From Ktedonobacterales bacterium (GTDB lineage Bacteria; Chloroflexota; Ktedonobacteria; Ktedonobacterales; JADMIN01), in contig DATGEP010000201.1 of NCBI GenBank assembly GCA_035310125.1, forward strand, positions 15,684 to 79,683: a stretch of 64,000 bases of DNA, read 5' to 3'. The position numbers and the translations under genes were made by a program. Shown piece by piece: positions 2,221-55,422 of the stretch; positions within the stretch are counted from its first letter, which is position 1; each line of letters opens with the position of its first letter. The notes beneath the pieces were generated by a model. It saw only the letters and a program-made list of their open reading frames with translations, was not told the origin of the DNA and ran no database searches.

Positions 2221-2332
2221 AAGAAGGGTCCCTTCGTCTCACTATGGGACGCGGAAGTGAACCGGGAGCTTCGCCACCGATGTGCATCCCTCCCCATGTC
2301 GCGGGGAGGGATGGATACGCGGGCGACGCGTA

Positions 2333-3265
2333 TTATGCCTGGTGTCGCTCGCCGCCGCGCTCACCGGATTCGAATGTCACCGCATGGCCGCCAAATTCGT
2401 TGCGCAACGCGGCTATCACCTTCGCGGAGAACGATTCTTGCTGGCGCGACGCGAAACGCGCGAGCAGTGACAGCGTGATGACCGGCGCTGGCACATCCTC
2501 GTCTATCGCGGCTTGCACCGTCCACCGACCTTCACCAGAGTCCTCGACAAAGCCGCGAATGCTCGCCAGGTCGCCCTCTTTCTGGAACGCAAGCTCCGCG
2601 AGATCGAGCAGCCACGAGCGGACCACGCTGCCGTGCTGCCAGACCTGCGTTACTTTGAGTAGATCCAGCTTGAACTGCGACTTCTCCAGTATCTCATAGC
2701 CTTCACCGTACGCCTGCAGCATGCCGTACTCGATGCCGTTGTGGACCATCTTCACGAAGTGACCAGCTCCATTTGTGCCCATGTAGCCGTAACCATCTAC
2801 AGGGGCCAGCGTCTTGAAGATCGGCTCGCAGTGATCGAAGATATCTTTCTCGCCGCCGACCATCAGGCTGTAGCCAACCTTGAGACCCCATATGCCGCCA
2901 CTGGTGCCGCAGTCCATAAAATGCATGCCCGCGGCTGAGACCTCGCCCGCACGGCGGATGGTGTCGTGGAAGTTCGAGTTGCCGCCGTCAATGATGATAT
3001 CACCGGGTTTGAGCAACGACATGGCGTGGTGCAGAGTGTCGTCCGTCACCTGGCCGGACGGCACCATCAGCCAGACGATCTTTGGGCTGGCATCGAGCTT
3101 CTGTACCATCTCCTCAAGCGTGTAGGCTGGAATGGCCCCGGCGCTGGCCGCCTGATCCACCGGACCCGAGCTGCGATTCGACGCCACGACGCGGTGGCCG
3201 CCCTGCACAAGCCGGACAGCCATATTGCCGCCCATGCGGCCAAGGCCGAAGATTCCAAGTTCCAT
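2333..3265 (-). CDS. gnd: 6-phosphogluconate dehydrogenase, short (about 300 aa) decarboxylating type
   Basis: 310-aa ORF. The N-terminal Rossmann motif is MELGIFGLGRMGGNMAVRL. The core matches the Gnd/YqeC-like family and the gene lies in the pentose-phosphate operon. Confidence 0.9.
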   Translation of the reverse strand: MELGIFGLGRMGGNMAVRLVQGGHRVVASNRSSGPVDQAASAGAIPAYTLEEMVQKLDASPKIVWLMVPSGQVTDDTLHHAMSLLKPGDIIIDGGNSNFHDTIRRAGEVSAAGMHFMDCGTSGGIWGLKVGYSLMVGGEKDIFDHCEPIFKTLAPVDGYGYMGTNGAGHFVKMVHNGIEYGMLQAYGEGYEILEKSQFKLDLLKVTQVWQHGSVVRSWLLDLAELAFQKEGDLASIRGFVEDSGEGRWTVQAAIDEDVPAPVITLSLLARFASRQQESFSAKVIAALRNEFGGHAVTFESGERGGERHQA

Positions 3266-3393
3266 TGCTGTTCTCCATGTACTGTTGCGGTGAGTACCGC
3301 GCCTGACCTGTCACCTGCCCCTCTCGCCGTGAGAGAATGGGAACGAAAGCCACCTGACCCGTCGGTGCGGGGAGGATACCCCACAGGCGGGAG

Positions 3394-38522: not shown

Positions 38523-38894
38523 GGCTACCTCCTCACGAGGTTCTTAGCTGACGTCGCGGCGCCTCATATTTATTATACGCGCGAACAATGCCAGAAGTGC
38601 GGCTCTTTTCTGAGGTTTGGCTGCGAGTGTCCGTCTCAGCGCATTCTCCGCCAGCGCTGCATCGTTGCGCTAAAGTGTACCGGGTCGGTAACAGGTGGGT
38701 CAAGACGGCACGATTGGACCAGCGGCTCCATCCGTTTGACCAGCGAGTCTCTGCCCATCAGCTCCGCATCCCGTATGGTCGCTGACTATGCCGCAGAGCC
38801 GTTGACGGTGCCGGTATCCTGGTGGTATCGTTTGTACATGCTTCACAAAATATATCAACATAGTTAAGTATTGCTGTACGGAAGCGGGGTTCCC

Positions 38895-40064
38895 ATGGGT
38901 GAGGTGTCACAGCAGATGCTGCGCCGCGCGCGCGGCGAAGTGACTGAGTGGAGCGCGAGCGAAGTCGAGCGCCGCATCAAAGCGGGTGAACACTTTCCAA
39001 TTGTGGACGTGCGCGAGAAGCTCGAATGGAACGATGGGTACATCCCCGGCGCTGTCCATGTCCCGCGCGGCTACCTTGAGCTTCAGATCGAAGAAGCGCT
39101 GCCTGACAAGGACCAGCCCGTCGTATTGTATTGCGCTGGTGGCGTGCGGTCGCTGCTCGCAGCGGAGACCCTGCGCCAGATGGGCTACAAAGAACCAATC
39201 TCGATGTCGGGCGGCTACACCAGTTGGCGGAACGCTGGCCTGCCGACGGCGACGCCGCGTGTGCTGAGCGACACGCAGCGCAGGCGTTACAGCCGGCATC
39301 TGCTCGTTCCCGAAGTGGGCGAGGCGGGCCAGCTCAAGTTGGCCGACGCGAAAGTGCTGCTGCTCGGCGCGGGCGGCCTGGGCGCTCCGGCTGCGCTCTA
39401 TCTGGCGGCGGCGGGCGTCGGCACGCTCGGTCTGGTAGATATGGACGTGGTGGAGGAGAGCAACCTTCAACGGCAGATCATCCATTCCACCGCGCGGCTC
39501 GGCAAGCTCAAGACGGAGTCGGCCCGCGAGGCGATCCAGGGGTTGAATCCCGACGTAAAGGTCGTCGCGCACAATGAGTGGCTGGATAAATCCAACGTCG
39601 CCCGCATCATTGCCGATTACGATGTGATCGTGGATGGCACGGACAACTTCCCGACGCGCTACCTGCTCAACGACGCCGCTGTGATCGCCAACAAGCCTGT
39701 CGTCCACGGCAGCGTCTTCCGCTTCGAGGGGCAGGTGACGGTCTTCAAGCCATATGACGGACCGTGCTATCGTTGCCTCTTCCGCGAGCCGCCACCGCCG
39801 GAGCTGGCGCCAAGCTGCGCTGAGGCTGGCGTGCTGGGCGTGCTGCCCGGCACTATCGGCATGCTCCAGGCAACCGAGGCCATCAAGCTGATTCTAGGCA
39901 TCGGGGAGCCGCTGGTGGGCCGCCTGCTGATGTATGACGCACTGAGTGAGTCCTTCGACGAGCTGAAGCTGCGCCGCGATCCGAGCTGCCCCGCCTGCGG
40001 TGAGGATGCCCACCCCGAAGATCTCCCGACCTACGAGGAGATTTGCGGCCTTCCAAAGCGGTAA
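38895..40064 (+). CDS. rhodanese-ThiF/MoeB fusion, E1-like adenylyltransferase/sulfurtransferase
   Basis: The N-terminal rhodanese reads IVDVREKLEWNDGYIPGAVHVP with active-site CAGGVRS. It is followed by the ThiF domain LLLGAGGLGAPAALYLAAAGVG and two CxxC pairs (CYRC, CPAC). Confidence 0.9.
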   Translation: MGEVSQQMLRRARGEVTEWSASEVERRIKAGEHFPIVDVREKLEWNDGYIPGAVHVPRGYLELQIEEALPDKDQPVVLYCAGGVRSLLAAETLRQMGYKEPISMSGGYTSWRNAGLPTATPRVLSDTQRRRYSRHLLVPEVGEAGQLKLADAKVLLLGAGGLGAPAALYLAAAGVGTLGLVDMDVVEESNLQRQIIHSTARLGKLKTESAREAIQGLNPDVKVVAHNEWLDKSNVARIIADYDVIVDGTDNFPTRYLLNDAAVIANKPVVHGSVFRFEGQVTVFKPYDGPCYRCLFREPPPPELAPSCAEAGVLGVLPGTIGMLQATEAIKLILGIGEPLVGRLLMYDALSESFDELKLRRDPSCPACGEDAHPEDLPTYEEICGLPKR

Positions 40065-40224
40065 GACGTGTCGCGCGGATCTTTTCGTCACGTCGCACGC
40101 GGACGGCGCCCGCCGCCGCAGAGGCGTGAGCTACCGTTCGCGTGGTCTGCCTGCGAAGGCAGAGAGCGGGATAATGCCGAGAGCGCATGCACACATTGAG
40201 CGATATTGAGGAGTCACAGAAGCT

Positions 40225-40503
40225 ATGAGCACCGTTCGTATTCCGCCCGTCCTGCGGGCCTCAGTTGGCGGCGCGAAGCAGGTGGAGGCCGGCGGCGATA
40301 CCCTCGGCGCCGTGCTGAGCGATCTCTTTGCCCATTACCCAACCGTCCGCGAGCAGATTCTGAGTCCTGAAGGGGACCTGAGTCGCTTCGTTAACGTCTT
40401 CGTCAACGATCAGGATGTGCGCTTCCTCAATGGACTCGAGACACCCGTGGGCGGCAATGACACGATTATGCTCTTGCCCGCGATGGCCGGGGGCGCACGA
40501 TAA
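40225..40503 (+). CDS. MoaD/ThiS-family sulfur-carrier protein (CysO-like)
   Basis: 92 aa with a beta-grasp-like sequence ending ...LLPAMAGGAR, that is Gly-Gly plus two extra residues. A GAGGAG Shine-Dalgarno sequence precedes it, and it lies between the E1 and cysM. Confidence 0.8.
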   Translation: MSTVRIPPVLRASVGGAKQVEAGGDTLGAVLSDLFAHYPTVREQILSPEGDLSRFVNVFVNDQDVRFLNGLETPVGGNDTIMLLPAMAGGAR

Positions 40504-40516
40504 CGACGAGGCTGAT

Positions 40517-41455
40517 ATGGCGCTGTATCCCAATCTCATCGAAGCTATAGGACATACGCCGCTCGTGGAGCTGTCCCACCTCAGCCCTCATCCCGATGTG
40601 CGGGTGTTCGTGAAGCTGGAAGGCGCCAATCCGACCGGAAGCGTCAAAGACCGCATCGCGCGGCAGATGATTCTGGATGCTGAGCGTACTGGCAGGCTTG
40701 TTCCCGGCAGCGTCATCTTGGAGCCGACGAGCGGCAACACGGGCATCGGTCTCGCTATGATCGCTCGCGTGCGCGGCTATCGGTTCGTCGCCGTCATGCC
40801 GGACAACGTCACCCCGGAGCGGCGCCAGATGCTTGCGCTTTACGGCGCGGAGATCATCGCGTCACCCGGCGCGGAGGGCAGCAATGGCGCGGTGCGCATG
40901 GCACAGCGCATGGCAGCCGAGAATCCAGACTATGTGCTGCTCTACCAGTACGGCAATCCAGCCAACCCTCGCGCTCACTACGAGACGACCGCGCCGGAGA
41001 TCATCGCCGATCTGCCCGACCTGGATGTCTTCGTGGCCGGGCTGGGTACCGGTGGCACGCTCACCGGCTGTGGGCGGCGCCTGAAGGAGCACAACCCCGG
41101 CATCCGCATCGTCGCCGCCGAGCCGTTGCAGGGCGAGGGCGTGCAGGGATTGCGCAGCCTGGAAGACGGTTTCATCCCGCCAGTGCTGGATAGCTCAGTC
41201 CTCGACGCCAAGATACTCGTCCACGCCGAGGATTCGCTACGTACGATGCGGGCATTGCTTGACAATGAAGGCATCTTTACGGGACCCAGTGGCGGCGCGG
41301 CGGTGCATGCCGCTCTGCGCGTAGCCAGAAGCATGGAGCGCGGAAAGATCGTCGCATTGCTGGCCGACGGCGGCTGGAAGTATCTAAGCGAAGACCTCTG
41401 GACCCGCAATCTGACTACCGCAGAAGAGGAGCTGGGGGGCAAGCTGCTATGGTGA
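40517..41455 (+). CDS. cysM: PLP-dependent cysteine synthase (CysM/CysK family)
   Basis: From ATG 40517 it reads MALYPNLIEAIGHTPLVEL...KLEGANPTGSVKDR (PLP lysine motif). Confidence 0.9.
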   Translation: MALYPNLIEAIGHTPLVELSHLSPHPDVRVFVKLEGANPTGSVKDRIARQMILDAERTGRLVPGSVILEPTSGNTGIGLAMIARVRGYRFVAVMPDNVTPERRQMLALYGAEIIASPGAEGSNGAVRMAQRMAAENPDYVLLYQYGNPANPRAHYETTAPEIIADLPDLDVFVAGLGTGGTLTGCGRRLKEHNPGIRIVAAEPLQGEGVQGLRSLEDGFIPPVLDSSVLDAKILVHAEDSLRTMRALLDNEGIFTGPSGGAAVHAALRVARSMERGKIVALLADGGWKYLSEDLWTRNLTTAEEELGGKLLW

Positions 41456-41916
41456 GCCTGGATGCGTTGCGCATCAGCCCAGACGTGCGCGGCGACGGAG
41501 CTGGCGTGCTGACGCTGCCGCGCGATATCTTTGCCGCCATGCTCGCCCATCTCGCAGCCGGCTACCCCGACGAAGCCTGCGGCGCGCTGGCAGGCGACGC
41601 GCAAGGGCGCGTCACCAGGAACTACCCCACCGCGAACGCCTCCACCACGCCGCGCGACTTCTCCGAGATCGGCGCATCTGACCTGCTTGCCATCTGGAAT
41701 GAGATAGACGAGCGCGACTGGACCATGCTCGCCTACTACCACTCGCACCCTGCATCCCCCGCGTATCCATCGCCACGCGACATCCTCTGGTCGCACGGCT
41801 GGCCTGGCACTTTCTACATCATCTTCTCGTTCGCGGACCGCGCCGCCCCTGTCGCCCGTGCCTTTCTCATCACCGGCAATGATGTAGCGGAATATCGCAT
41901 CCAGACGGGCCTGTAA
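41449..41916 (+). CDS. JAMM/MPN+ metalloprotease (Mec-like)
   Basis: It carries the JAMM motif YHSHPASPAYPSPRD (HxHx7Sx2D) and an upstream EACG. Its start overlaps the cysM stop (ATGGTGA). Confidence 0.85.
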   Translation: MVSLDALRISPDVRGDGAGVLTLPRDIFAAMLAHLAAGYPDEACGALAGDAQGRVTRNYPTANASTTPRDFSEIGASDLLAIWNEIDERDWTMLAYYHSHPASPAYPSPRDILWSHGWPGTFYIIFSFADRAAPVARAFLITGNDVAEYRIQTGL

Positions 41917-42729
41917 CGAGGGCAACAGGCCGGCGCGGCCATTGATGGCCTGGGCGTAGGCAGGCAAGGCTTGCGACGCTGAAGCTATCGGTGTACCAGA
42001 TGGCGTGGATCCGGTGCGGATGGACGCGAACGGCCAGCGGAGGAGCGCACTGCAACACCAATCCAAAGCCTGTATAGCGTAGATGGCTCCTAGAGCGCCG
42101 GTAGAGTCGTCATGCCGCCTGCTGGAGACGGTGCGGGAGGCGGCGCACGCCCTGCTGCTGGTCCACGACGGCGCCGCGGCGCCGGACAAACCGGAGTGTG
42201 CGCGGCTCACCAGACAGGCTATCGTCAGCTTCGCGAACAATCTGGATAGTGGCAACCATGCTCGGCGCCTTTATGCCGTGACCTACACCTACACCGGCCC
42301 GGCGGAGATTATCAGTCAGGGAAACGGCTGCCCACCGGAGCCAACCATGCCCCCGCCACACCTGATCTGGATGACCGCGCCGTGACCGCGACGACACTCG
42401 GACGTGCGGGATCACCGCCTGGCATGGCATCTGCCATCACATGTGACCACTTTCCATACAACATCCTTTTCATCCTTGCCCGCGCCCCATATCCGTGCCA
42501 TAACTATGAGTTAGCGATAGGTGAGCAACCACACATTGCAACCGTCCATCCATTTGGAATCGCCAAGCAAATCGAGCATCCACGAGGGAGGAGACCATGT
42601 CCGAGCCAGTTGCTCCACACTGACTCGCGTTGCGGCGCGGCGCACGGCGCCCAATGCCACTTCAGCCGGTTCCGGTACACCTGATTCCGCGGTGACCGAC
42701 AGCACAATCCAGAGCGGAGGTTTGTCGTT

Positions 42730-45095
42730 ATGACTAATCAGCACATGCCAGCCGGCTTTGAGCGCTGCCGCGAGGACGAACGACACCTTACCGGCAGAGG
42801 GCAGTTCGTGGACGACCTTCGTCCCCCTCCTGGTCGGCCCGACCCGCTCTTCATGGCGGTCGTCCGCAGCCCCTATGCGCATGCGCGCATCGGCGCGATT
42901 GCCACCGAGCAAGCCGCCGCGCTCCCTGGCGTCGTTGCGGTCCATACCGGCCGTGCGCTCGCGGAGCACCTGCCGCCAATGACTACCGTTCTCGCTCCGG
43001 GAAGTAAGTCCGTTGAGCGGCGTCCGCTGGCAACCGACATTGCCCGGTATGCCGGCGATCCCGTCGCGCTCGTGCTGGCGGAGAATAGTTACGCTGCCGC
43101 CGACGCCAGCCTCCTCGTCGACGTGGAGTATGATCCCCTGCCCGCCGTCACCGATCCAGAGCAAGCGCTCACACCCGATGCCCCGGTTCTCTACGACGAG
43201 CTGGGCGCCAACGATGTCTATCGGGTGTCCATCGGCGGCGGGGACATCACGGCGGCCTTCGCCCACGCCAGCGGCACCGTCACGCTCCGCCTCGTCAACC
43301 AGCGCGTCGCCGCCAGCCCGCTGGAGCCGCGCGCGTGCCTGTTCGACTTCGACCCAGAGACCGGCCAGCTTACCGCCTGGATCTCCTCACAAAGTATCTT
43401 CCGCGCGCGCGACACGCTCGCCAGCTCACTGGGCATCCCGCCCCGCTCCATCCATGTCCTCAATGCCGATGTCGGCGGCGCCTTCGGCACCAAGTCCATC
43501 TTTCTCGGTGAGGAAATCGCCGCGGCCGCTCTCGCCGTCCGCTATGGCCGGCCGGTCAAATGGATCGAGGACCGCAGCGAGAACTTGCAAGCCCAGGTGC
43601 ATGGGCGTGGGCAGATCAACGAGGTCGAGGCGGCCTACACGGCGGATGGGCGCGTTCTGGGTATGCGCGTGCGAACGATCGCGGACCTCGGCGCGTTTCT
43701 CCTCGGACCCTATCCGACGTTCCCGATCCGAACCGCGAAGTTAGTCTGCGGACCGTATCGCATCGAAGCCGTGGCGGCGGAGATCATCGGCGTGGTGACG
43801 AACAAGGTGCCGGTCGGCGCGTATCGCGGCGCGGGCCGCCCCGAAGCCACCTACATCGTGGAGCGCGTCATGGATCGCGTCGCCCACGTGCTTCAGATCG
43901 ACCCCGTCGCGCTGCGCCGCCGCAATCTGCTCACGCCGGACGCCTTTCCCTACACCACCCCACCGGCCTCGTCTACGATAGCGGCAACTACCAGGCGGCG
44001 CTCGAGCACGCCCTGGCCCTCGCGGACTACGCCGGCTGGCGCCAGCGCCAGCGCGAGCGGCGCGACCGCCACGCGGGCAATCTGCTCGGCATCGGTGTGT
44101 CCACGTTCATTGAGTCAACCGGTGATCTCACGAGCCCGAAAGATTCGTTACAGGAAGCAGCCACCGTGCGTATCCTGCCGGATGGCACGCTGCTCGTGCT
44201 CAGCGGCGTCGCCACCACGGGCCAGGGCCACGGCACCACCTTCGCGCAGATTGCCGCGCAGGTCTTTCAGGTCCCCAGCTCGCACGTCGCAGTACAGCTG
44301 AATGACTCCGCCCTCCCCGGCTATAGCCTCGGCACGAACGCCAGCAGAGTGACTCTTGTTGCCGGCTCGGCGGTCCGGCTGGCGGCGGAAGCCGTGCGCG
44401 CGAAAGCCGTCACGCTTGCCGCCGACCGGCTCGAAGCCGCCCCCGACGATCTGGAGGTCGCGGCTGGGCGCATCGCGGTGCGTGGGTTCCCCGCCCGCAG
44501 CGTCTCGCTGGCGGACCTCGCCCGCGCCGTTGACGAGCAGCCGGCGCTGATCGCGCACGAGCCGCCCAACCCCGTCAATGGCGCCCCCATCACGGGGCTG
44601 GCGGCGTGGCGTTCCTTCGCACCCGATGGCATAGCGATAGCTTCCGGCGCACACGTTGCCGTGGTCGAGGTCGATGGCGAGACCGGCGAGGTGCAGGTTT
44701 TGCGCTACATCGCCGTGGACGACTGTGGCCGCATCGTCAATCCTGCCCTGACCGCGGCGCAGCTGCATGGCGCCCTGGCGCAGGGCATCGGGCAGGCGCT
44801 CTTCGAGGAGGTGCGCTACGACGCGGCGGGGCAGGTACTCAGCGGCACCCTGCTGGACTACGCGCTGCCCAAAGCCCGCCAGCTGCCCGCGTTTGTGCTG
44901 GGGCACGTCGAGACGCCCGCTCCCGGCAACCCCCTCGGCGCGAAAGGGGCGGGGGAGGCGGGCGCGATCGCCGCGCCGCCCACCATCGTCAACGCGGTGC
45001 TGGATGCGCTGGGCATCCCCAGCATCCCTACGCTCGATATGCCCCTGCGCCCGGAAAAGATCTGGGCGCTGCTGCACCAGGCGCACGCAACATGA
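42730..45095 (+). pseudogene. CoxL/xanthine dehydrogenase-family molybdopterin-binding subunit, frameshifted
   Basis: Two ORF-track pieces (42730..44301 and 43560..45095) are the N- and C-halves of one protein of about 789 aa (AYRGAGRPE motif). Homology switches frame at the C-run 43958-43961, from ...DAFPYTTP to TGLVYDSGNYQ.... The length of 2366 nt is one nucleotide short of a multiple of three. Confidence 0.8.
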
Positions 45096-46239: not shown

Positions 46240-47796
46240 TTAGAGTTGTGGTGTGAGGGGACCCAACTGGTCCGTGGTGGGTTCCGCTCAGCAGAACCAC
46301 GCTTCCGTGAGATGCGGCACAGGGCGGCGGGCACGCCGCACTCCCCCGCGCTCGCGCGATTGTTCGCGAGCGTGTGCCGGTACGCCCAACGTCTCTTCAG
46401 CCAGCGCACGCAGCGCCGCGAAGATGTCGTCCGGCGCCTCTCCGGCGCTCGTCGCCGCCTCCACCAGTCGCGCCGCTTCGTGTTGCAGCTCGTCCATGCA
46501 TGGGTCGGGGTGCGCCCAGCGATAGGTGAAGCGTTCTTCATCCAGCGGACCGAGCCATTCCGCGACGCTCTCGTCCGCCAACAGCGCGGAGCCGGGAGGC
46601 ACGAGCAGCCGAATGGTGTACTGCACCGGGTCAATACTGCCCAGGAGATCGTACGTTTCGGCAAAGTCGAGCAGGTCCAGATAGTCGCGTGGAGTAGTCC
46701 ACGGCGTGAAAGCCACCAGCGTCGGGCGCATCGGTATGCCCGCGTCCTCAAGAATTGCCAGCGCCTCGACCACGTCCGCGCGCGTGTGGCCCTTCCGAAG
46801 ATGCCGCAGCACTTCGGGGCTGAGCGATTCGACGGCGGAAACGATAAAGGCGCACCCTTGCGTAGCCAGCTCCGAGAAAATCTGGCGCCGCTCCAGGATA
46901 TGCTCGACCTTGATCGTGGCATCGAAGGTGACATGCGGGAACTCGGCATGCAGCGCGCGCACGATGGCGAGCGAGTGGCCGGGACCGTTCAGGAAATCAG
47001 GATCGCCGAAAGTGATGTGCTCGACACCAGCACGCACCTGGGCGCGGATGTCCTCCAGCACAACGGCGCGCGGAACGATGAAGAAACGCCCGCCGTAGAT
47101 GGGCGTGATGGGGCAGTGCGCGCAGGTATGCAGGCAGCCCCGGCTCGCCTCGACATAGCCCGCTGGCACGGCGATCCCTTCACGGACGAGATGAGCATAG
47201 TGGCGCGGCGCGGGTAGCACATCACGAGCGGGGGTGGCGAAAGGCAGACGCTCCAGCACCGGCGCGGCGAAGGCTTGTCGAGTGCGCACACCGCGCACTT
47301 CCTCCGGCTCGCCGCTATCGAGCGCGCGGACGAGTCCCAGCAGAGCCTCTTCGTACTCGCCGCCAATCGTGGCATCGGCGCATTCCCGCAGCAGATAGTC
47401 CGCGTTGAGTGAGGCATAGAGTCCGTAGAAGCAGATCCGCGCGGTGGGATTGAGCGCACGCACGCGCGCTGCCACGCGCGTGCCGAGCCGCAGCGCGGTG
47501 TGCATGGGCACGGAGATAGCCACGAGCCGCGCCACTGCGATGGTCTCATCGGTCAGATCGGCCACCGAGGTGTCCACAACGGCGGGGGAGTAGCCCGCGC
47601 GGCGCAGTGTACCCAATGGTGAGGCCAGCGCCAGCGGCTGATGCCCCAGCTCATAGCACGACACGAGCAGGATCGCGCCCGGTGCTCGCATGGTTACGGA
47701 GGGTTTTCGTCCCGCGTCCGCGCGCGCTGGCTCTTGAGATGCGCGATACGTCACCGGCGAAGGCGCCGGCTCCGCAAATGTGGGATTGTTCGCCAT
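46240..47796 (-). CDS. B12-binding-domain radical SAM protein with a CUAEP tail (putative selenoprotein; UGA at 46288-46290 read as Sec)
   Basis: It has the CX3CX2C motif RGCLHTCAHCP and a Rossmann-like N-terminal domain (ILLVSCYELGHQP). The ORF track stops at TGA after ...HLTEAWFC. The same frame continues AEPTTDQLGPLTPQL to TAA 46240-46242. The start ATG at 47796 overlaps the yggX stop. Confidence 0.75.
46254..46290 (-). promoter_or_regulatory. candidate bacterial SECIS hairpin beginning at the UGA
   Basis: The minus-sense sequence is UGAGCGGAACCCA[CCACGGACCAGU]UGGGUCCCCUCA. It gives 11 base pairs with one bulged C and one A.C mismatch, and a 12-nt apical region containing GU 21-22 nt after the UGA. 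An alternative 5-bp apical helix GGACC/GGUCC with loop AGUUG is possible. Confidence 0.4.
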
Positions 47797-48131
47797 CACT
47801 TCTTGCGTGCGGGCGCTCCGCCGCCCTTGGTCGCGGGCGCCCCACCCCCTTTGCCCTGCGACTGGCCTTCCGGCATCCAGCCTTCTGGCATCTTGTTCTC
47901 TTCGCTGAACAAGAACTCTTCCATCTGCTGGCGCAGAATCTGGCGCGAGTCGGGGTCGGCAAGATTGAGTCCGTAGTGGTTGATGATGAGACGGGACTGC
48001 TCCTGCCACATATCCCATGCCTGCTGAGAGATATTGTCGTAGATGCGCTGGCCTAGCTCACCAGGAAAGGGGGGCTTCTCCAGGCCCGGTAAATCCTGTC
48101 CCAGTTTGGCGCAGTGTACAATTCGTGCCAT
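47796..48131 (-). CDS. yggX: YggX-family Fe(2+)-trafficking / oxidative-damage protection protein
   Basis: MARIVHCAKLGQDLPGLEKPPFPGELGQRIYDNISQQAWDMWQEQSRLIINHYGLNL... aligns by eye with E. coli YggX. It has an extra Gly/Lys tail with KGGGAPA x2 and an AGGAG Shine-Dalgarno sequence. Confidence 0.85.
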   Translation of the reverse strand: MARIVHCAKLGQDLPGLEKPPFPGELGQRIYDNISQQAWDMWQEQSRLIINHYGLNLADPDSRQILRQQMEEFLFSEENKMPEGWMPEGQSQGKGGGAPATKGGGAPARKK

Positions 48132-48324
48132 CGCGCGGCGCTCCTGTTCGTGTACCTGTTCTTCGTCGTGCAGTACTCACGAGTCCTTGATAGCATACCG
48201 CAAACCAGGAACAGCGGCGACACCAGCGGGAAGCGTGAGCCTGGGTCTGGCGCTTTCGTTCCGTCTTCGCTTCCCTCGCTTTATCTTCCACGTCGCCGCT
48301 GGAAGTAGATGAGAGTGTCGCGTT

Positions 48325-49461
48325 TTATATGGCAAACTCAGCGGCGTAGAGCAGCGGCCGGCGCGCCCACACTTCCAGCGCGGGCACGTCGCTGCCGCGA
48401 AGCACCTCTAACACCGCGCGGTACAGATTCATGCCTTGCTCACGCTTACCCTGGAAAAGCAGCTCATCGCCAAGCGCGGTGAATGCCTGGGCAAGCAACG
48501 CGTCGTCTTTGTCGCGGCGTGCGAGTCCAGCGACATCCTCAATGATGGTGACACGGTCTTCGTCTCTGCGGCAGAGACGGCTATAGCGAGCGAGCGTAAG
48601 CCGGACCATTCCCTTGCCGATCTCATCAACTCCCTCAGTAGCAAATTCCTGTGCGATCTGGATGTGCGGCAGCGCAAAACGGATCTGGTTTTCGCGGTCG
48701 CCTTCGGCGGCAAACGTGGCGGCAAAGTCGAGCGCTGCATCGGCGACCAGCGCCTGAACACGCGCGGCTGTCCCCAAATTCTGGCTCTCACAGAAGACGT
48801 TGGCAGCGGCGCTCGCGTGACGCAGAGCGCGCTCGGGCTGACCCCGCCACCGCTCCAGATTCGCCTGAATCCATTCAATAGTCGCTGATTGGATCGGATC
48901 GGCGAGGACGTGGGCGATCAGGCGTCGGGCGTCGCGCAGCCGCTCTTCCGCGGTTACGTATTGAGCCAGATAAAATCGCAGACCCGCGAGACGTATGAGG
49001 CCGGAAAGCGCCATCGCTCCATCGGCGGGTACATCCTCGTCGCCCTCGTCGTCGAGGATGCTCAGGGAGTATTCGATATCATTTGCGGCGTCGCGCAGAC
49101 GCAGCACAGATTGATGAATAGTCGCGCGCAACAACAGCAAATCCACCAGCGCGCCATTATCTGGAAATGTCACTGCCAAGAATAAACCAGCATCGAGCGC
49201 ATCGAGCGCCTGTTTGGTATCGCCGATAGCGGCGTAGAACTTCGCCTTGATCTTCTGGATCGCCATGCGTTGGTGGGCTGAAATCGGCATATCATCGTAG
49301 CGGGCGAGCCGTTCAAATGCATGAAAAAGGGCGCGGACGCGGTTCTCATCATCTCGTATATCAGCCCAAGTCGCAAAGAGGTCATTGCGAACATCGAAGC
49401 GATAATTCCGCTCGTCCTGCCACTCGATGAGGTCGGGAAAGCGCGTAGAATAGATGAGCAT
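48325..49461 (-). CDS. all-helical repeat (TPR-like) protein, function unknown
   Basis: 378 aa. The ATG at 49461 is preceded by AGGAGG. The sequence has a helical-repeat character with no catalytic motif. Confidence 0.6.
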   Translation of the reverse strand: MLIYSTRFPDLIEWQDERNYRFDVRNDLFATWADIRDDENRVRALFHAFERLARYDDMPISAHQRMAIQKIKAKFYAAIGDTKQALDALDAGLFLAVTFPDNGALVDLLLLRATIHQSVLRLRDAANDIEYSLSILDDEGDEDVPADGAMALSGLIRLAGLRFYLAQYVTAEERLRDARRLIAHVLADPIQSATIEWIQANLERWRGQPERALRHASAAANVFCESQNLGTAARVQALVADAALDFAATFAAEGDRENQIRFALPHIQIAQEFATEGVDEIGKGMVRLTLARYSRLCRRDEDRVTIIEDVAGLARRDKDDALLAQAFTALGDELLFQGKREQGMNLYRAVLEVLRGSDVPALEVWARRPLLYAAEFAI

Positions 49462-49580
49462 AGATCGCCTCCTAATGGTGCTCGACTGAGAACATGACTG
49501 CGGACGCCAGCTGAAAGCAAGACGATTGGGTCAGATGAGAAACGGTAGGAAAAGGATAGCACCAGCACATGATAAGAGAT

Positions 49581-49619
49581 CCCCCAGGGATGATGGCCCC
49601 GAAAACCATTCCCTGGGGG
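49581..49619 (-). terminator. hairpin downstream of the small hydrophobic ORF
   Basis: The arms are cccccaggga and tccctggggg, 10 bp, plus inner atgg/ccat pairing. On the minus strand it is followed by AUCUCUUAUC. Confidence 0.35.
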
Positions 49620-49669
49620 GAATATGGCGTGGCGCTGGTGTCATCCACCAGAATACCACGCCTGCATGG

Positions 49670-49882
49670 CTAGCAGGGCAACGATATGCCTGGACACTGC
49701 ACCTGCGGACCCATCGCGAGCTGCGCGTGCGCGCTAAGAGGTGTGACCGCGCTTGACCCGCCAGCGGCGAATGCCAGCAAGATCGCCAGGAGCACGAGTA
49801 TTCGCGCAAACGCGGCAGCCTGGCTGGCTGCCAACCAGCACACGCCGGTTGCGAGGTTGAACGGAAAGTGTACACTACGCAT
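49670..49882 (-). CDS. possible 70-aa hydrophobic or secreted small protein
   Basis: The ATG at 49882 lies 10 nt after AGGAG. The sequence is MRSVHFPFNLATGVCWLAASQAAAFARILVLLAILLAFAAGGSSAVTPLSAHAQLAMGPQVQCPGISLPC, with one transmembrane or signal-like segment. There is no homology evidence. Confidence 0.25.
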   Translation of the reverse strand: MRSVHFPFNLATGVCWLAASQAAAFARILVLLAILLAFAAGGSSAVTPLSAHAQLAMGPQVQCPGISLPC

Positions 49883-50177
49883 TGGGGGAAGTCTCCTCTG
49901 ATGTGGCCGTTCAGGCCTCTGTTGGCGGCCGGAGCATGCCAACCATGCCCGACCGCTGCTGCCCCTTACGCCCGCGAGTCTGTGGGATGCAGCCTTACTC
50001 GCTGCGTCACATCGGCTCGCGTCTTTTTGGGCGTCTCTCACGACTGATGCTTCCAGCACCTCCTTCGCTCCAGAACCGGCCTCGCCGTTCGGGCGTATGC
50101 CTTTTTACGGGTGGCCAGATGTTGGATGGATACGATCAACACCCTCAGGATAACGCCCCCAATAGGAGATATCTAGT

Positions 50178-50207
50178 TACATTTACAGTATGTATACATT
50201 TACAGTA
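50178..50207 (+). repeat. tandem direct repeat TACATTTACAGTA x2 (period 17) in an AT-rich patch
   Basis: The copies lie at 50178-50190 and 50195-50207 and are exact. The surrounding 150 nt or so is visibly AT-richer than the rest of the window. Confidence 0.7.
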
Positions 50208-51238
50208 GATTTTTGTACGCGAGGATGCGCCGTGTATTTGTGATCGGGCGCGCGGCGACGTGTCTTTCTGGCCCGATACTGAGATGTGGAGATACGCGGT
50301 GCGCTGCGAATAGCCCGCCAAAAATAGCAGGTAAAAATCGGCGGGTCTATACTGGCACTACACTTTCCTGGTGATATCGGGCACTATGTACTTCGAGCGG
50401 AGGCATGGCGCCGTGGCTCGCTCCTGAGGCTATCCCTCGTGAGATAACCCTGAAGAGTCGTGTTATGGTAGTACGGCTTCCTAGCTGCGGCAGCGACCGG
50501 GGCGAATGATTGACTGATCACCCATGCGCTGTCGCCAGGAGGAGAACAATGGGAGTCATCTGGGACCACTCAGCTCGCACACGAAGCGCACCGGCCATCG
50601 TACAGGTGTGGCTCCGCCGCGTCATGTTGTGGCATCTCGCGGGACGCGCATCCTCTCACCCGCCCAATCCCTCCCCATTCACATCAAGGCACTGGAAGGC
50701 GCCCGCTCGGTGCTGTGCCGACAACCGGTCTAGGAGAATAGATGGAATGAAGATATCAGACTGCGACGCAGACTGGATATGTGGTAGTATGGCGGACACG
50801 ATACAAGTCCATGCAGCCTTCGTGTGGCGTTTGCGTGTGCAGCGACCGAGGCTTCTCTTTTCCGCCAGCCGCATTTCACACCGGTATCTGCCGCGCCGCC
50901 ATACGTCAGCGCTCGCTGTCGGCACCCGTTTTGCCGAGGTAGATACAACTCGTAATCGAGCCAGCACCACGTGCGCGCGGCGCCGCGAAGTACGGCGAGA
51001 TGTTCACCTGCGGCTCGCTGGTGAGCTGCCATATCAAAGACGATTCGTTCGCAACCATAGGGGTAATAGCGCGTCCGCGGAGTTTCGCCCGCACCTTGTT
51101 TGTGCGGGCACATCAGTCCACCGGACAGTGAGGGCACCATGGTACGCGGCACATTGGAGTGGATACTAGCGAGCCATCTCCATGCGGCTCCGTCTTACCG
51201 CTGGGCTTCGTCCGGTGGTCGGAAAGGGGCAGTGAAGC

Positions 51239-51760
51239 ATGGCCGGGATGAATCCACAGCGCAGGGAGCAGGCCGAACGCTTTGGTAAGCTCGTGAAGAG
51301 ATTCCGAGAGTCCAAGCGCCGCTCCCCCAATTCCCATGGACATAGCATGTTCATGACGCAGGCCGACCTTGCCATCCGTCTGCATCAGATTTGGAAAGAC
51401 ACGCATGAGGAAGACTGGCCGTTCGATTCCTCATGGGTTGGCAAATTGGAGCGTGGTCATGTGCTCGTGGATGGTGCGCTCGCGAATTGTGTCACGGAAG
51501 CGCTCGGAGCGACGCGGGACGAGCGCACGCTGTTGATGGCCGCGGTCGGATTTAACACGGTACCGGAGGATGTGTTGGACGATCTGCAGATTCCGGTGCA
51601 TGACATCCCCATCAGTCTTTCCGTTCACATGGACACGGTCTTGAAAGACAAAGGCGCCTTATTAGAAGATCTGCTCCATGTCGTGCATCAGATTAAAGAC
51701 ATCGTCCGCGACGAGATTCTCCGCAAGGTGCGGGATGCCGAGTCGCTGGACGGTGAGTAA
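51239..51760 (+). CDS. XRE-family helix-turn-helix protein
   Basis: The HTH-like segment reads MTQADLAIRLHQ...SSWVGKLERG, and the gene lies directly upstream of an ImmA/IrrE-type peptidase gene. Confidence 0.65.
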   Translation: MAGMNPQRREQAERFGKLVKRFRESKRRSPNSHGHSMFMTQADLAIRLHQIWKDTHEEDWPFDSSWVGKLERGHVLVDGALANCVTEALGATRDERTLLMAAVGFNTVPEDVLDDLQIPVHDIPISLSVHMDTVLKDKGALLEDLLHVVHQIKDIVRDEILRKVRDAESLDGE

Positions 51761-51920
51761 CGCCTGATGGTGCTGGCCGGAGAGGGCAGGTGGCACATGG
51801 AAGAAGGTACCTACCCCGCCCGGCCGGTAGACGGAGACAATCGCCCAGCTTCGTGCTGGACGGTACGTGCCTCCTTTCCGTGCCATCCGGGCAACATACT
51901 ACCGAAGGGGAGCACAGGTT

Positions 51921-52505
51921 GTGACACAGATAGTGCACGAACACCCGACACTAAGTCCGCTCACCGGCACCCAGCTGGACGATCCTCCGCATATCGAGTG
52001 GACGTTGGAGCGACTCATCGAGGCATGCCGGATCAAGGGCATTCGCTTTGACGAGACGCACAACCTCACCAGTTTGCAGGGCTTCGCCGTCAGCTGCGGC
52101 CGCACGGTTCTCATCAACGTGCGCGCGAATCTGCCGCGTGAGGAAAAACTGTTCACTCTGGCTCATGAGCTTGGACACATCGCGCTTGGGCGCATGTATA
52201 CCACCACTGTCGGCGAAGTGTTGGATTGGTTGGACACGTCGCTTGCCGCCTTTCAGGACGCCGCCCAGGAAACCAGCGCCGATCTCTGGGCAGCGCACCT
52301 GCTCGTCCCACCGGAGCTGTTTGCGGCCCACTATGCGGCTGCAAAGGAGCGGATGGCTACATCCCCAGAGGAGGACATCCTGGCCAGCGCTATGCGGCAG
52401 ACCGCCCGGTCGCTCGGCGTCCTACCACATGTTGTCGAGATCTGGTATGCCCATCGGGATGAATGCCCGGTGCCCGCGCCTGCGAGCTGGCTCAACGGCG
52501 TGTAA
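51921..52505 (+). CDS. ImmA/IrrE family metallo-endopeptidase
   Basis: It carries the HEXXH motif LAHELGHIALG and a downstream ADLWAAHLLVP block typical of DUF955/ImmA. GTG 51921 lies 8 nt after AAGGGGAG. The ORF-track start at 51867 is also possible. Confidence 0.8.
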   Translation: MTQIVHEHPTLSPLTGTQLDDPPHIEWTLERLIEACRIKGIRFDETHNLTSLQGFAVSCGRTVLINVRANLPREEKLFTLAHELGHIALGRMYTTTVGEVLDWLDTSLAAFQDAAQETSADLWAAHLLVPPELFAAHYAAAKERMATSPEEDILASAMRQTARSLGVLPHVVEIWYAHRDECPVPAPASWLNGV

Positions 52506-52521
52506 TCACACCGTTTGCCCG

Positions 52522-52565
52522 CATTTGGCACGCGCACGCCATGTATGGCGTGCGCGTGCCAAATG
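52522..52565. terminator. perfect 21-bp palindrome between convergent genes (likely bidirectional terminator)
   Basis: The arms are catttggcacgcgcacgccat and atggcgtgcgcgtgccaaatg, separated by gt. It lies 17 nt after the ImmA stop and 5 nt from the stop of the convergent HTH gene. Confidence 0.55.
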
Positions 52566-52569
52566 TTCG

Positions 52570-54102
52570 TCAAGGCTCACTCACCTGCTCATTGCGTGTG
52601 GGTGAGTCTTGGTCCATGCTTCGCAGGCCGTTCGCCTGCATGCGCAGCCATTTGATGATGCGACCTCGGTGCTTCTCCTGAGCAGGAATCCGCTCCCAGA
52701 GCTCCTTCTCAAAATAGTTGTAGAAAGCCGTGACAAGGTTCGCGTCGGCGATTGAGATGTCTACCTCGACGTTGCCGTGTGCCTGGACATTGTGCAGGGT
52801 TTCCATAAGGACCACGTACCCTTGCTTCACCATCCAGAACAACCGGCGCATCTGGGGATAGAGACGCTCCACCGTGTCTTCCTCTAGCAATGCTAGCTGG
52901 TAATGATGGTGTCTTTCTTCTAGTCGCTTCGCCAGCTCTTCGAGAACCTGCGCACGCTGCGGCTCGGTCAGGACACCGCTTTTGAGCAGCCGATCCGTTG
53001 GAGAGAAGACGCCGTCGCGAACCAGACGAAGAATTGACTGCTTTGTGCAGATATCGCGGACGCGGAAGTCCCGCAGCTCGGCCTCGAATGCTTCATTCCG
53101 GCGCTCTCGGATCGTGATGAGCTGGCGCAGGCGGTTAACCTCGCCCAATTCGCCCTCGGCCGTCGCTTTCTCTTTAAGGATCGTCGCGCGTGTCTCATAG
53201 ATCGAAAACGGCACATGGGCCTCACTCAACCCGTCCATGACGAGGCAGCGGTTGCCCTCTTGATAATCGGCCTCCGCGAGCGCACTGCTGAATCCAACGG
53301 CGTTTGGTGGTGTCCGCTGTAACAATGCGTGATTCTTGCCGCACAGCGATTTGAGCATTGCGGAAAGCATCTCGTACTCGGCACCCTCGCTCATTACGTC
53401 GCAGCTCGCCGGCTCGCCACCACGTGGCAAAACCAGCTTGAACAGGCCGCACCCCGGAGCCAGGATATATTCACATGCCCGCGAGTCAACCTGATAGGTG
53501 TCAACGTATACTGGATTGTAGTTTCCGGCTGCGCTCAGCAGCCCAATGAGATTCTCGACGATCCCTTTCGAGCGCGCCGGCCCTGGCGTTCCATAGTAAA
53601 GATGCACAATATCCCATCGGGCATCCAATGCCGCGCGCAGCGCCGCTATCCAGCGCGCTCGCAGCCGCGCGGCCCGCTGGAACACGCCCTCCGGGCCGAA
53701 ACTCGTAATGACGATAGGCTCCTGGCGTTGGCCAGACTGATGCGCGGCATCCAATACGAAGCCAATTGCTTCATTCATAACGCGCTCCAGCGCGCGTGTG
53801 TCGTCGTCAATCTGCGTATCCCGTTTCGGCGTGTCTATCCCACCGTCCAGCTTGCGCTCTAGCCACTCAACCCTCGATTTGAGCATCTGGAGCTCGTGCG
53901 TGAGCGCCTCTAGCGGTCCGTTTTCGGCTGAGAGCGCCGCGAGCGGGCGCTTATGGCGGCGTGCCAGCTCGTACAGTTGGTCGGACGAAATAACCGATGC
54001 TTCCAGAATTGGCGGGGTGATCGTGGCCGTACGCAGCCACCTGTGCAACGTGGTTTTCCTCACCTGCAAGAGTCTCGCGGCTTCCTCCAGAGCGTAGTAC
54101 AT
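52570..54102 (-). CDS. HTH (excisionase/MerR-like) protein with a C-terminal region of about 430 aa of unknown function
   Basis: The N-terminus MYYALEEAARLLQVRKTTLHRWLR is a typical HTH_17-like element, followed by a coiled-coil (LTHELQMLKSRVEWLERKL) and a large uncharacterised region. A GGAGAGG Shine-Dalgarno sequence precedes it. Confidence 0.7.
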   Translation of the reverse strand: MYYALEEAARLLQVRKTTLHRWLRTATITPPILEASVISSDQLYELARRHKRPLAALSAENGPLEALTHELQMLKSRVEWLERKLDGGIDTPKRDTQIDDDTRALERVMNEAIGFVLDAAHQSGQRQEPIVITSFGPEGVFQRAARLRARWIAALRAALDARWDIVHLYYGTPGPARSKGIVENLIGLLSAAGNYNPVYVDTYQVDSRACEYILAPGCGLFKLVLPRGGEPASCDVMSEGAEYEMLSAMLKSLCGKNHALLQRTPPNAVGFSSALAEADYQEGNRCLVMDGLSEAHVPFSIYETRATILKEKATAEGELGEVNRLRQLITIRERRNEAFEAELRDFRVRDICTKQSILRLVRDGVFSPTDRLLKSGVLTEPQRAQVLEELAKRLEERHHHYQLALLEEDTVERLYPQMRRLFWMVKQGYVVLMETLHNVQAHGNVEVDISIADANLVTAFYNYFEKELWERIPAQEKHRGRIIKWLRMQANGLRSMDQDSPTRNEQVSEP

Positions 54103-54477
54103 CGTTGTCGCCTCTCCGGTGCTGGCGCGCCCGTGCGCCCTATCTCGTCACATTCCTCTCTCCGGCCAGGGTTCGTAAATCGCGTCTGCTGACCGCACGG
54201 TGTATAGTGTAAAGCGCGTTACCTTCCCTGTATAGCCCCTCACACCGAGACAGGAACACTCCAGCGCGGCTGACACAGAGAAGGACGCATTGACACAATA
54301 TGATGCACACTCTAAAGGAGCCGCTGTGTCTCGCGTGTATTACCCGTGTGCAATTCCAGGGGCGGCGTCCAGTGCTGCCACACCGGCGCAACCACCCGCC
54401 GGTGCGCTGCTGGGCGTTGATACAGCGCATCTCGCATGCTGGTTCCCGATCCGCCGCTTTCGCTGAGGCCAAATACG

Positions 54478-55422
54478 ATGTCGCCATCCGCTATCTCGTG
54501 CGTCTTCTTCGGCATGGCGGGCGCATTCTCACGCCCGCCGCTTGAGGCGCTGCTTCGAGCCGGCGTTGCCGTGCGCGCGGTGGCGCTACCGGCGCTCTCC
54601 GGTGTTTCCGTCGCCGATCCCGACGTACCATACATCGTGCCGCCGCGCCCCCCGACCGCTATCAGGCGGCGTACCCTACCGCTGCTGTCTCCGGCTCGTG
54701 ACGACGACTCGATTCTCCAGATAGCCGCCGCACGAGACATTCCTCTCCTGGAGCTTCGCCAGCTCGGTGACCCGCGTACCCTCGCGGCGCTGGCCGCATT
54801 CGCACCTGACGCGATCTGTGTAGCGTGCTTCTCGCGCCGCATACCCTCCGCGCTGCTGCGCTTACCGCGTTTGGGCTGCCTGAATGTGCATCCCTCGTTG
54901 CTGCCCGATAATCGCGGCCCCGATCCGCTCTTCTGGACGTTTCGTAATGGCGACACACAGACCGGCGCGACCGTTCATATCATGGATGAAGGGCTGGATA
55001 GCGGGCCTATCGTCGCCCAGCGCGCCATTCCCGTAGAGGAAGGCATCACGCAGGCGGAGCTGGAATGGACGTGCGCCACAATGGGCGGCGAGCTGCTCGT
55101 GGAGGCGCTGTGTGGCTTAGCCGAGGGCAGTCTCACTCCCCAGCCGCAGGATGAGCGTCTGGCGACCGTTTATCCCTGGCCCTCGGACGACGACTATCTC
55201 ATCACCCCGGACCGCCCGGCACGGTGGGCATATTCCTTTGCGCGCGGTGTCGGCGGCACGGTGCGTCCGATCTATATCGCAACATCCGGCGCGACATTCC
55301 GGCTGGCTGCTCCGGTTGGGTACGATGCCGCCGCGACGTTGGGAGCGCCATACCGCCTCGCGGGCCAGGAGCTGGCGCTCCAGTGCGCGCCCGGTGTGTT
55401 CTATGCGCGGATTGATGCGTAG
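54478..55422 (+). CDS. formyltransferase family protein (Fmt-like)
   Basis: It carries the LNVHPSLLPDNRG motif and the TGATVHIMDEGLDSGPIV block, with a C-terminal Fmt-like domain. It is not next to def, so it is probably not the housekeeping fmt. Confidence 0.75.
   Translation: MSPSAISCVFFGMAGAFSRPPLEALLRAGVAVRAVALPALSGVSVADPDVPYIVPPRPPTAIRRRTLPLLSPARDDDSILQIAAARDIPLLELRQLGDPRTLAALAAFAPDAICVACFSRRIPSALLRLPRLGCLNVHPSLLPDNRGPDPLFWTFRNGDTQTGATVHIMDEGLDSGPIVAQRAIPVEEGITQAELEWTCATMGGELLVEALCGLAEGSLTPQPQDERLATVYPWPSDDDYLITPDRPARWAYSFARGVGGTVRPIYIATSGATFRLAAPVGYDAAATLGAPYRLAGQELALQCAPGVFYARIDA

Follow-up and report, generated by a model that had tools for sequence, protein, structure and literature searches.

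The stretch of DNA analysed here, called the window below, covers 64,000 nucleotides of contig DATGEP010000201.1 from a Ktedonobacterales bacterium and carries, on its minus strand, a gene for a radical S-adenosylmethionine (SAM) protein with an in-frame TGA near its 3' end. Starting with an ATG at 47796, the open reading frame (ORF) runs down to ...PHLTEAWFC and then meets the TGA at 46290-46288, in the codon context GAA GCG TGG TTC TGC TGA GCG GAA CCC. The last three of these codons encode Ala-Glu-Pro and are followed, in the same frame, by TTDQLGPLTPQL and then by a TAA at 46242-46240, which gives a tail of 15 codons downstream of the UGA (AEPTTDQLGPLTPQL; 46243..46287, minus strand) that was delimited from the sequence and from orthologues. 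The Cys right before the UGA is residue 502, and the UGA falls at residue 503 of an extended product that would count 518 amino acids. Its full coding sequence (CDS), which includes the TGA that is probably recoded and the true TAA, spans 46240..47796 (minus strand) and was defined with the sequence itself, the NF040546 family model and the Pfam Radical_SAM model. Further upstream, both the sequence and the family alignment point to CLHTCAHC (CxxxCxxC; residues 221-228 at 47136-47113, minus strand) as the motif for the radical SAM [4Fe-4S] cluster, with C221, C225 and C228 as its cysteines. An earlier note on this DNA, made from the sequence alone, had described an ORF that ends at ...WFC, followed by a TGA and then by AEP and further residues to a TAA, and it was exact both in its coordinates and in its reading.

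The start codon of this gene is ambiguous (47689-47796, minus strand). The gene caller picks the ATG at 47796, which adds 35 non-conserved residues, and the conserved N-terminus of the family begins at Met36 (47691-47689); in most relatives, the stop codon of a yggX gene located just upstream abuts the conserved Met directly.

The in-frame UGA that we propose to be read as selenocysteine (Sec; U503 at 46288..46290, minus strand), right after Cys502, was supported by a codon alignment and by three assemblies. The window was 99.7-99.9% identical to two other assemblies from the same population (ENA ERZ27279678 and Logan SRR5579859), and the three showed zero differences over 46240-46300, TGA included. 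Since the same TGA is found in three independent assemblies, a sequencing error at this codon is excluded. Moreover, TGA terminates 16 of the 43 large ORFs of the window, the upstream yggX among them, and is therefore an ordinary stop elsewhere, showing that there is no general code reassignment. A search across the window for other split ORFs with an in-frame TGA gave no further convincing candidate.

When the extended protein was scored against NCBIfam profiles, with the UGA position written as Cys, it matched NF040546, the "CUAEP/CCAEP-tail radical SAM (seleno)protein" family, with 713.1 bits (E = 1.4e-214) for a curated cut-off of 500. This match aligns residues 42-512 with profile positions 1-467 (of 468), so that it spans the UGA and ten residues beyond it; Pfam PF04055 (Radical_SAM) gave 54 bits, and the three cluster cysteines of the CxxxCxxC motif are invariant throughout the CUAEP-tail family. 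The family that the earlier note had named is thus the one to which this protein belongs, over its full length. The 120 closest database proteins are 64-84% identical to it and come mostly from Ktedonobacterales: 103 of them have their C-terminus at ...WFC, while the other 17 read ...WFCCAEPT(S/T)xQL.PL.... A similar truncation was found in the cultured Thermomicrobium roseum DSM 5159, where the RefSeq CDS of TRD_RS12835 (megaplasmid NC_011961.1; L081 11953-13434) halts at the UGA; the gene reads ...ESWFC*AEPLEDPSGP... and its frame runs on as AEPLEDPSGPVASQVRMVDQPLR. Its neighbours are genes for an aminotransferase, an MFS transporter and a large GNAT protein, with neither YggX nor a ligase among them.

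These database entries bear out the claim that standard annotation truncates the protein. The broader statement that the recoding is an event missed by annotation was right for generic gene callers only, since NCBI curates and names the family, and orthologues that are 65-82% identical bear that name in its records already. The recoding is therefore a curated, named trait of a known family, which generic gene callers miss and which is not new to science. One publication names the CUAEP/CCAEP-tail family and lists it as uncharacterised, without a study of it (Haft, bioRxiv 10.1101/2022.07.06.499078). Compared with other NF040546 members, the protein has the same W-F-C-(U/C)-A-E-P tail, the same cluster motif and the same alternation between Sec and Cys, and nothing essential is different; this copy may have an N-terminal extension of 35 residues, it has a short 5 bp hairpin after its UGA, and ~6.3 kb of unrelated DNA separate its yggX from the usual formyltransferase neighbour.

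A scan of one genome per species brought more than 570 relatives, of which the best 80 were used for the counts of codons and genomic contexts that follow. These 80 loci come from Ktedonobacteria, Thermomicrobia, Methylomirabilota (Rokubacteria), Nitrospirota, Acidobacteriota and Gemmatimonadota. The codon aligned with the UGA of the window gene is TGA in 64 of them, TGC in 14 and TGT in 2, and WFC-(TGA/TGY)-AEP is found in 79 of the 80, usually with T-x-x-Q-(L/F)-(G/D)-P-L next and a stop 10-25 codons on. An AEP right after a Cys-UGA is thus not there by chance, as the earlier note had argued, and the comparison with orthologues that it had suggested turned up an aligned Cys codon in 16 of the 80 loci, with the frame continuing as AEPT..Q(L/F).PL. 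The way in which the sequence varies downstream of the TGA was equally informative: over the eleven codons that follow it, the mean column entropy was 0.43, 0.56 and 1.15 bits at codon positions 1, 2 and 3, respectively. For Ala, Glu and Pro, the first two codon positions never change and the third one does. Such variation, mostly at third positions, is the signature of a coding sequence.

The family is also large and widespread. When cluster representatives (50% identity) were searched exhaustively, 511 clusters scored E <= 1e-30, and the CUAEP-tail family is spread over at least six phyla, mostly in aerobic soil and thermophilic bacteria. Among full-length top representatives, 35 clusters end with CC(A/S)EP, 31 have their C-terminus at W(F/Y)C, which we presume to be the Sec form, and 4 end with an ArsL-type KRCC(L/I)(K/R)C tail; the Cys-(Sec/Cys)-Ala-Glu-Pro motif was also seen in 39 Cys-form cluster representatives. 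The TGA form exists in cultured bacteria (T. roseum DSM 5159, Thermalbibacter longus and Thermomicrobium sp. CFH 73360), as does the Cys form (Thermogemmatispora species). The Sec machinery was also looked for beyond the window: a tblastn search of plasmid records with an approximate E. coli SelD query (98.8% correct) gave 168 records, with Thermomicrobium absent among the 60 matches listed, and the literature searched offered nothing of use on selenocysteine in Thermomicrobia and Ktedonobacteria.

Downstream of the UGA, the window gene can form a small hairpin with the core GGACC-AGUUG-GGUCC (46259..46273, minus strand), made of a 5 bp stem and a loop at 46268-46264, which was detected by covariation. 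The stem begins 14 nt past the UGA in the window; many orthologues have a 7 bp stem that begins 12 nt past it. In an ungapped alignment of 62 TGA-bearing sequences, in which columns 16-22 face columns 28-34 around a loop with the consensus AGUUN, 86.4% of the cells were standard pairs, compared to a mean of 75.0% in shuffled alignments, and none of 500 shuffles reached the observed pairing. In Cys-codon genes, the same columns gave 41.9% of standard pairs for a shuffled mean of 43.0%, and 353 of 500 shuffles reached the observed value. Changes on both sides were found for six of the seven pairs (58 cells) in TGA genes and for three of the seven pairs (5 cells) in Cys-codon genes. When the 3' partners of the TGA genes were slid by 1-3 columns, pairing dropped to 21-57%. 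The compensatory variants of the stem include GGACC/GGUCC, GGAGC/GCUCC, GGAUC/GAUCC, GGGCC/GGCCC and GGGUC/GACCC. Since the pairing is seen in TGA genes only, and since the peptide is kept in the Cys forms, the hairpin goes with the UGA rather than with the peptide.

On this comparative basis, the covarying hairpin located 12-14 nt after the UGA is a predicted bacterial selenocysteine insertion sequence (SECIS) element. The archetype of such elements is that of Escherichia coli fdhF; we take the spacing of the hairpin to resemble that of the minimal fdhF SECIS, and the invariant G24-U25 of its loop (counted from the U of the UGA) to correspond to G23-U24 of fdhF. The two elements have in common a start 12-14 nt after the UGA, a G-U in the apical loop and a location inside the CDS, but the stem is far shorter here (5-7 bp), it has no conserved bulged U and it lies among the final 15 codons of the gene. 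No Rfam family matches this hairpin.

Considering all of this, the UGA is very probably recoded as Sec, which would make the gene a 518-amino-acid member of NF040546 with a C-U-A-E-P tail. Several observations weigh against this reading. The 64 kb window contains no tRNA gene and gave no Rfam hit, no SelA, SelB or SelD reached its cut-off among the 20 large ORFs of the window that were scanned with NCBIfam (the ThiL of the window matched SelD below threshold only), and the flanks of the 80 related loci contain no tRNA-Sec. As for the hairpin, the window copy has only 5 bp, and single-sequence folding prefers another structure, with z-scores of -1.3 to -1.5 that are not significant; since the fold of this copy is weak and is not the minimum-energy one, only the comparative test is informative.

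The same lack of visible Sec machinery within the window would fit a TGA that is a true stop, with a protein that ends at ...WFC, as standard gene callers have it, and with a terminator or a regulatory RNA behind the downstream conservation. We consider this extremely improbable: 16 orthologues with a Cys codon read on into the conserved tail, the post-TGA variation is mainly at third positions with the Ala, Glu and Pro codons fixed at the other two, the family hidden Markov model reaches ten residues past the site, and no terminator-like site was found. It is also very improbable that the UGA is translated without Sec, by near-cognate insertion of Cys or Trp or by a lineage-wide reassignment of UGA. 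No Sec machinery was seen in the window, which leaves some room for such a readthrough, but TGA is an ordinary stop for many other ORFs of the window, yggX included, the position alternates specifically with Cys codons, and a hairpin at SECIS distance covaries only where the codon is TGA.

Directly upstream of the radical SAM gene, the window carries a yggX-type gene for an Fe(2+)-trafficking and oxidative-damage-protection protein of 111 amino acids (47796..48131, minus strand; PF04362 125.8 bits; NF003817 133.7 bits for a cut-off of 74). Its TGA overlaps the ATG of the radical SAM gene (TGATG), which makes co-translation probable, and the two genes are probably co-transcribed and translationally coupled as an operon; promoter and terminator scans around this operon found nothing. 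A YggX gene lies directly upstream of the radical SAM gene in 41 related loci, and YggX and the radical SAM protein are fused in one database entry (P0117). Outside Chloroflexota, an Nfu/NifU gene takes the place of YggX beside the radical SAM gene. In ~25 related loci, for example in the closed genome CP126532.1, a divergent formyltransferase gene is found beside yggX. Its orthologue in the window (54436..55422, plus strand) lies ~6.3 kb from yggX and encodes a formyltransferase-family protein that scores 118.8 bits with TIGR00460, below the cut-off of 201.5, and that is 47% identical to the corresponding neighbour in one related locus (L068).

Another recurrent neighbour is a gene for an ATP-grasp protein with an L-amino-acid-ligase C-terminal domain. 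When up to 6 kb were considered on each side of the radical SAM gene, this ligase gene was found in 23 of the 80 loci, usually within ~2 kb, in four phyla and in three gene arrangements; BacD and DdaF are among its best NCBIfam matches, which are sub-threshold. With the ligase as query, a radical SAM gene was present in 32 of the best 80 loci, and the 29 of these genes that have a recognisable tail use TGA (26) or TGC/TGT (3). Most of these 80 ligase-centred loci (L088-L167) have a NifU/Nfu gene right beside the ligase gene, also when there is no radical SAM gene in the surrounding 6 kb; the more constant unit may be the ligase together with Nfu. No such ATP-grasp ligase was found in the window. 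One NCBI genome encodes an 850-residue fusion of an ATP-grasp ligase with a radical SAM protein ending in CCAAP (P0257; L087 8001-10553), with NifU next door. In another fusion (P0133), a radical SAM protein with a CCAEP tail is joined to MerB (alkylmercury lyase), and a second MerB gene lies nearby; this fits a handling of organometals or organometalloids.

The only close characterised relative of the window enzyme is ArsL, the radical SAM protein of arsinothricin biosynthesis. Its model, NF040542, was the second-best match of the extended protein (313.3 bits), and the next family scored 55 bits. A Bacillus cereus protein with an RCCLKC tail is 38% identical over 407 residues, with 10 gap positions, and in the family alignment, the two adjacent cysteines of ArsL-type tails fall on the Cys-Sec (or Cys-Cys) pair found here. 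The two groups thus have in common their domain layout, the CxxxCxxC motif and a C-terminal pair of vicinal chalcogens, together with invariant residues corresponding to Gly16, Gln18, Pro19, His223, His262 and Trp390 of a Cys-form homologue (P0016, whose numbering is used below). Their tails (WFC-U-AEP here and RCCLKC in ArsL) have only the vicinal pair in common. According to two preprints (bioRxiv 10.1101/2024.02.01.577332; bioRxiv 10.64898/2026.04.29.721666), ArsL splits SAM into methylthioadenosine and a 3-amino-3-carboxypropyl species and binds arsenite through its C-terminal cysteines, and removal of its tail abolishes the formation of the C-As bond while SAM cleavage is retained. Two further observations concern ArsL-type genes. 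One database protein (P0267) is a GNAT-methyltransferase-ArsL-type radical SAM fusion, which resembles ArsN, ArsM and ArsL in one chain. On the Bacillus plasmid, an ATP-grasp gene lies 3 kb from the RCCLKC-tail gene; its product shares 23% identity with the ligase family described above in the ATP-grasp core and has the same best NCBIfam hits, a resemblance that we regard as a weak hint.

A sequence search of the PDB found no deposited ArsL structure, and the fold was looked at in an AlphaFold2 model of P0016, which is 70% identical to the window protein. This model has a mean predicted local distance difference test (pLDDT) score of 91.4 and shows a disordered linker at 441-448, followed by the tail segment at a pLDDT of ~77-81. 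Its best PDB match was AprD4 (6fd2), then MgmA, TsrM and OxsB, with TokK and CysS also among the matches. A MiaB/RimO-like auxiliary Fe-S cluster in the N-terminal domain was considered and rejected: its candidate ligands Cys12, Cys87 and Cys278 are near-invariant in close relatives only and are replaced by Thr, Ala, Val or Leu in the wider family.

A C-terminal Cys-Sec pair is also known from other proteins, such as thioredoxin reductase with its GCUG tail. Cys-Sec motifs recur in metal-handling proteins and have been linked to heavy-metal binding (bioRxiv 10.1101/2022.07.06.499078), and the CU selenoproteins described there (HgcA, MerT-like proteins and the MerB-like SaoL) have in common with the CUAEP-tail family a vicinal Cys-Sec near a flexible C-terminus. 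As for these proteins, a link to soft metals is suggested for the CUAEP-tail family, in this case by the single radical SAM-MerB fusion. The folds and catalytic cores of HgcA, MerT-like proteins, SaoL and thioredoxin reductase are however unrelated to those of the window enzyme, which has no metal-resistance context.

Combining the tail, the ArsL relationship and the gene neighbours, we tentatively put forward an ArsL-like transfer to a soft atom held on a Cys-Sec arm as the likeliest mechanism of this enzyme, at less than even odds. During translation, the hairpin with its G-U-containing AGUUN loop would recruit SelB carrying Sec-tRNA(Sec), which would let the chain continue from Cys502 through Sec and then AEPTTDQLGPLTPQL up to the TAA. 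In the folded protein, SAM would be bound on the [4Fe-4S] cluster held by CLHTCAHC, as in ArsL, and cleavage of its S-C(gamma) bond would give methylthioadenosine and a 3-amino-3-carboxypropyl group, either bound to the cluster or as a radical. This group could then be joined to a soft, thiophilic atom presented by the flexible C-terminal Cys-Sec pair, which would stand in for the arsenite-binding Cys-Cys of ArsL; a metalloid, a metal, selenium or sulfur would be candidates for this atom. The product would be an unusual alpha-amino acid that may be handed to the BacD/DdaF-like ATP-grasp ligase, and YggX (or Nfu in other phyla) may supply or repair the Fe-S cluster.

A number of findings weigh against this chemistry. 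The match to the ArsL model stays below its cut-off of 450 and covers profile positions 1-408 of 423, leaving the tail unmatched, and the tether of the tail is ~50 residues longer here than in ArsL. Just before the last cluster cysteine, the family has an invariant His (His190) where ArsL-type proteins have Tyr or Phe; more generally, Met63-His64-Thr65, His190 and His300 are invariant in the family and absent from ArsL-type proteins, which indicates that the active site differs from that of ArsL. No ars genes were found among the conserved neighbours of the 80 loci, nor beside the window gene: the Bacillus RCCLKC-tail gene does have ars neighbours, whereas there is no arsM, arsQ or ars operon here, with YggX/Nfu and the ligase instead. 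The ligase and Nfu also co-occur without a radical SAM gene nearby, and no assay exists for any member of the CUAEP-tail family.

Part of these findings would agree with a selenoprotein that uses canonical 5'-deoxyadenosyl radical chemistry, in which the Cys-Sec pair would be a redox-active or H-atom-donating swing arm, on the model of the C-terminal Cys-Sec of thioredoxin reductase or of the C-terminal cysteines of ribonucleotide reductase, rather than a holder of the substrate. Canonical chemistry is the rule among radical SAM enzymes, and AprD4, which came first in the structural comparison, is a diol dehydratase of this kind whose N-terminal domain is free of cobalamin. Most family members have no metalloid gene context, and the family-specific His residues again imply an active site unlike that of ArsL. 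We still consider this possibility somewhat unlikely: ArsL stands out with its 313 bits and 38% identity when compared to the 55 bits or less of any canonical enzyme, the vicinal chalcogen pair is common to this family and to ArsL, where it binds the substrate, and a fusion to a MerB domain exists. A cobalamin-dependent radical SAM methyltransferase is, for its part, improbable. It would explain why the structural matches include TsrM, OxsB, TokK and CysS, and why there is a weak Pfam match to B12-binding (PF02310), yet this match reaches 25.1 bits only for a threshold of 32.1, and B12-radical SAM family models score at most 55 bits for cut-offs of 360-650. The nearest structure, AprD4, which we take to be cobalamin-free, weighs in the same direction, and cobalamin dependence was judged unlikely. 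The available text on the reconstitution of ArsL makes no mention of cobalamin (bioRxiv 10.1101/2024.02.01.577332). Of the "B12-domain radical SAM" label given by the earlier note, the radical SAM part holds, with the 54 bits of the Pfam model, and the B12 domain is a sub-threshold hit only.

Going back to an ArsL-like transfer, it can be extended to the family as a whole, at the price of becoming a distinctly unlikely proposal. CUAEP-tail enzymes would be a large sister group of ArsL that cleaves SAM in the non-canonical way and transfers the fragment to a soft atom (Se, S, Sb, As or a metal), giving an organo-chalcogen or organo-metalloid amino acid not known so far; the ligase would turn it into a dipeptide acting as an antimetabolite or as a metal-binder, and YggX or Nfu would maintain the cluster in aerobic soil bacteria. 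If the enzyme does form a C-Se or C-metalloid bond, it would join the very few radical SAM enzymes known to break SAM at the gamma-carbon of its methionine. Whatever the chemistry, the window gene would be one more selenoprotein cut short by generic ORF callers, with Sec and a tail of 15 residues lost, in a large and widespread family that carries no assigned reaction. Testable leads added here are a minimal predicted SECIS element, a nearest characterised enzyme (ArsL) and the rare MerB fusion, to which come the partnership with a ligase (fused in one genome), the Fe or Fe-S helpers, and the cultured carriers of the Sec and Cys forms.

The rest of the window shows a few other features. The DNA that separates yggX from the formyltransferase gene (~48300-54400) has a GC content of 0.58-0.60, compared to ~0.65 in its flanks, and encodes a TPR-like protein and several ORFs without matches, together with an ImmA/IrrE-type M78 peptidase (51867-52505) and a 510-amino-acid protein with an N-terminal HTH_17 domain (52570-54102). 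This segment of ~6.3 kb has probably been inserted as a mobile or defence-type module; its boundaries showed no flanking direct repeats. Between the convergent peptidase and HTH genes, there is a perfect inverted repeat of 21 nt, with 2 nt between its arms (52522-52565), which may act as a terminator in both directions or as an operator.

At 42730-45095 (plus strand), a gene for a CoxL-type molybdopterin subunit of the xanthine-dehydrogenase family is split into two overlapping frames near 43957. A sibling assembly (L083) has one extra G at this place and an intact gene of 788 amino acids, so that the split is either a 1-nt deletion, which would make it a strain-specific pseudogene, or an assembly error in the window. 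Genes for a rhodanese-ThiF (MoeZ-like) protein, a pyridoxal phosphate-dependent cysteine-synthase-like protein and a JAB/Mec-like protein, followed by an ORF of 100 amino acids (38871-42385, plus strand), form a cluster that resembles the CysO sulfur-carrier pathway of cysteine biosynthesis and that is not conserved beside the radical SAM gene elsewhere. The window also contains a housekeeping cluster of the oxidative pentose-phosphate pathway (664-6303, minus strand), made of zwf, a gnd-like gene and a gene for a bifunctional transaldolase/phosphoglucose isomerase.

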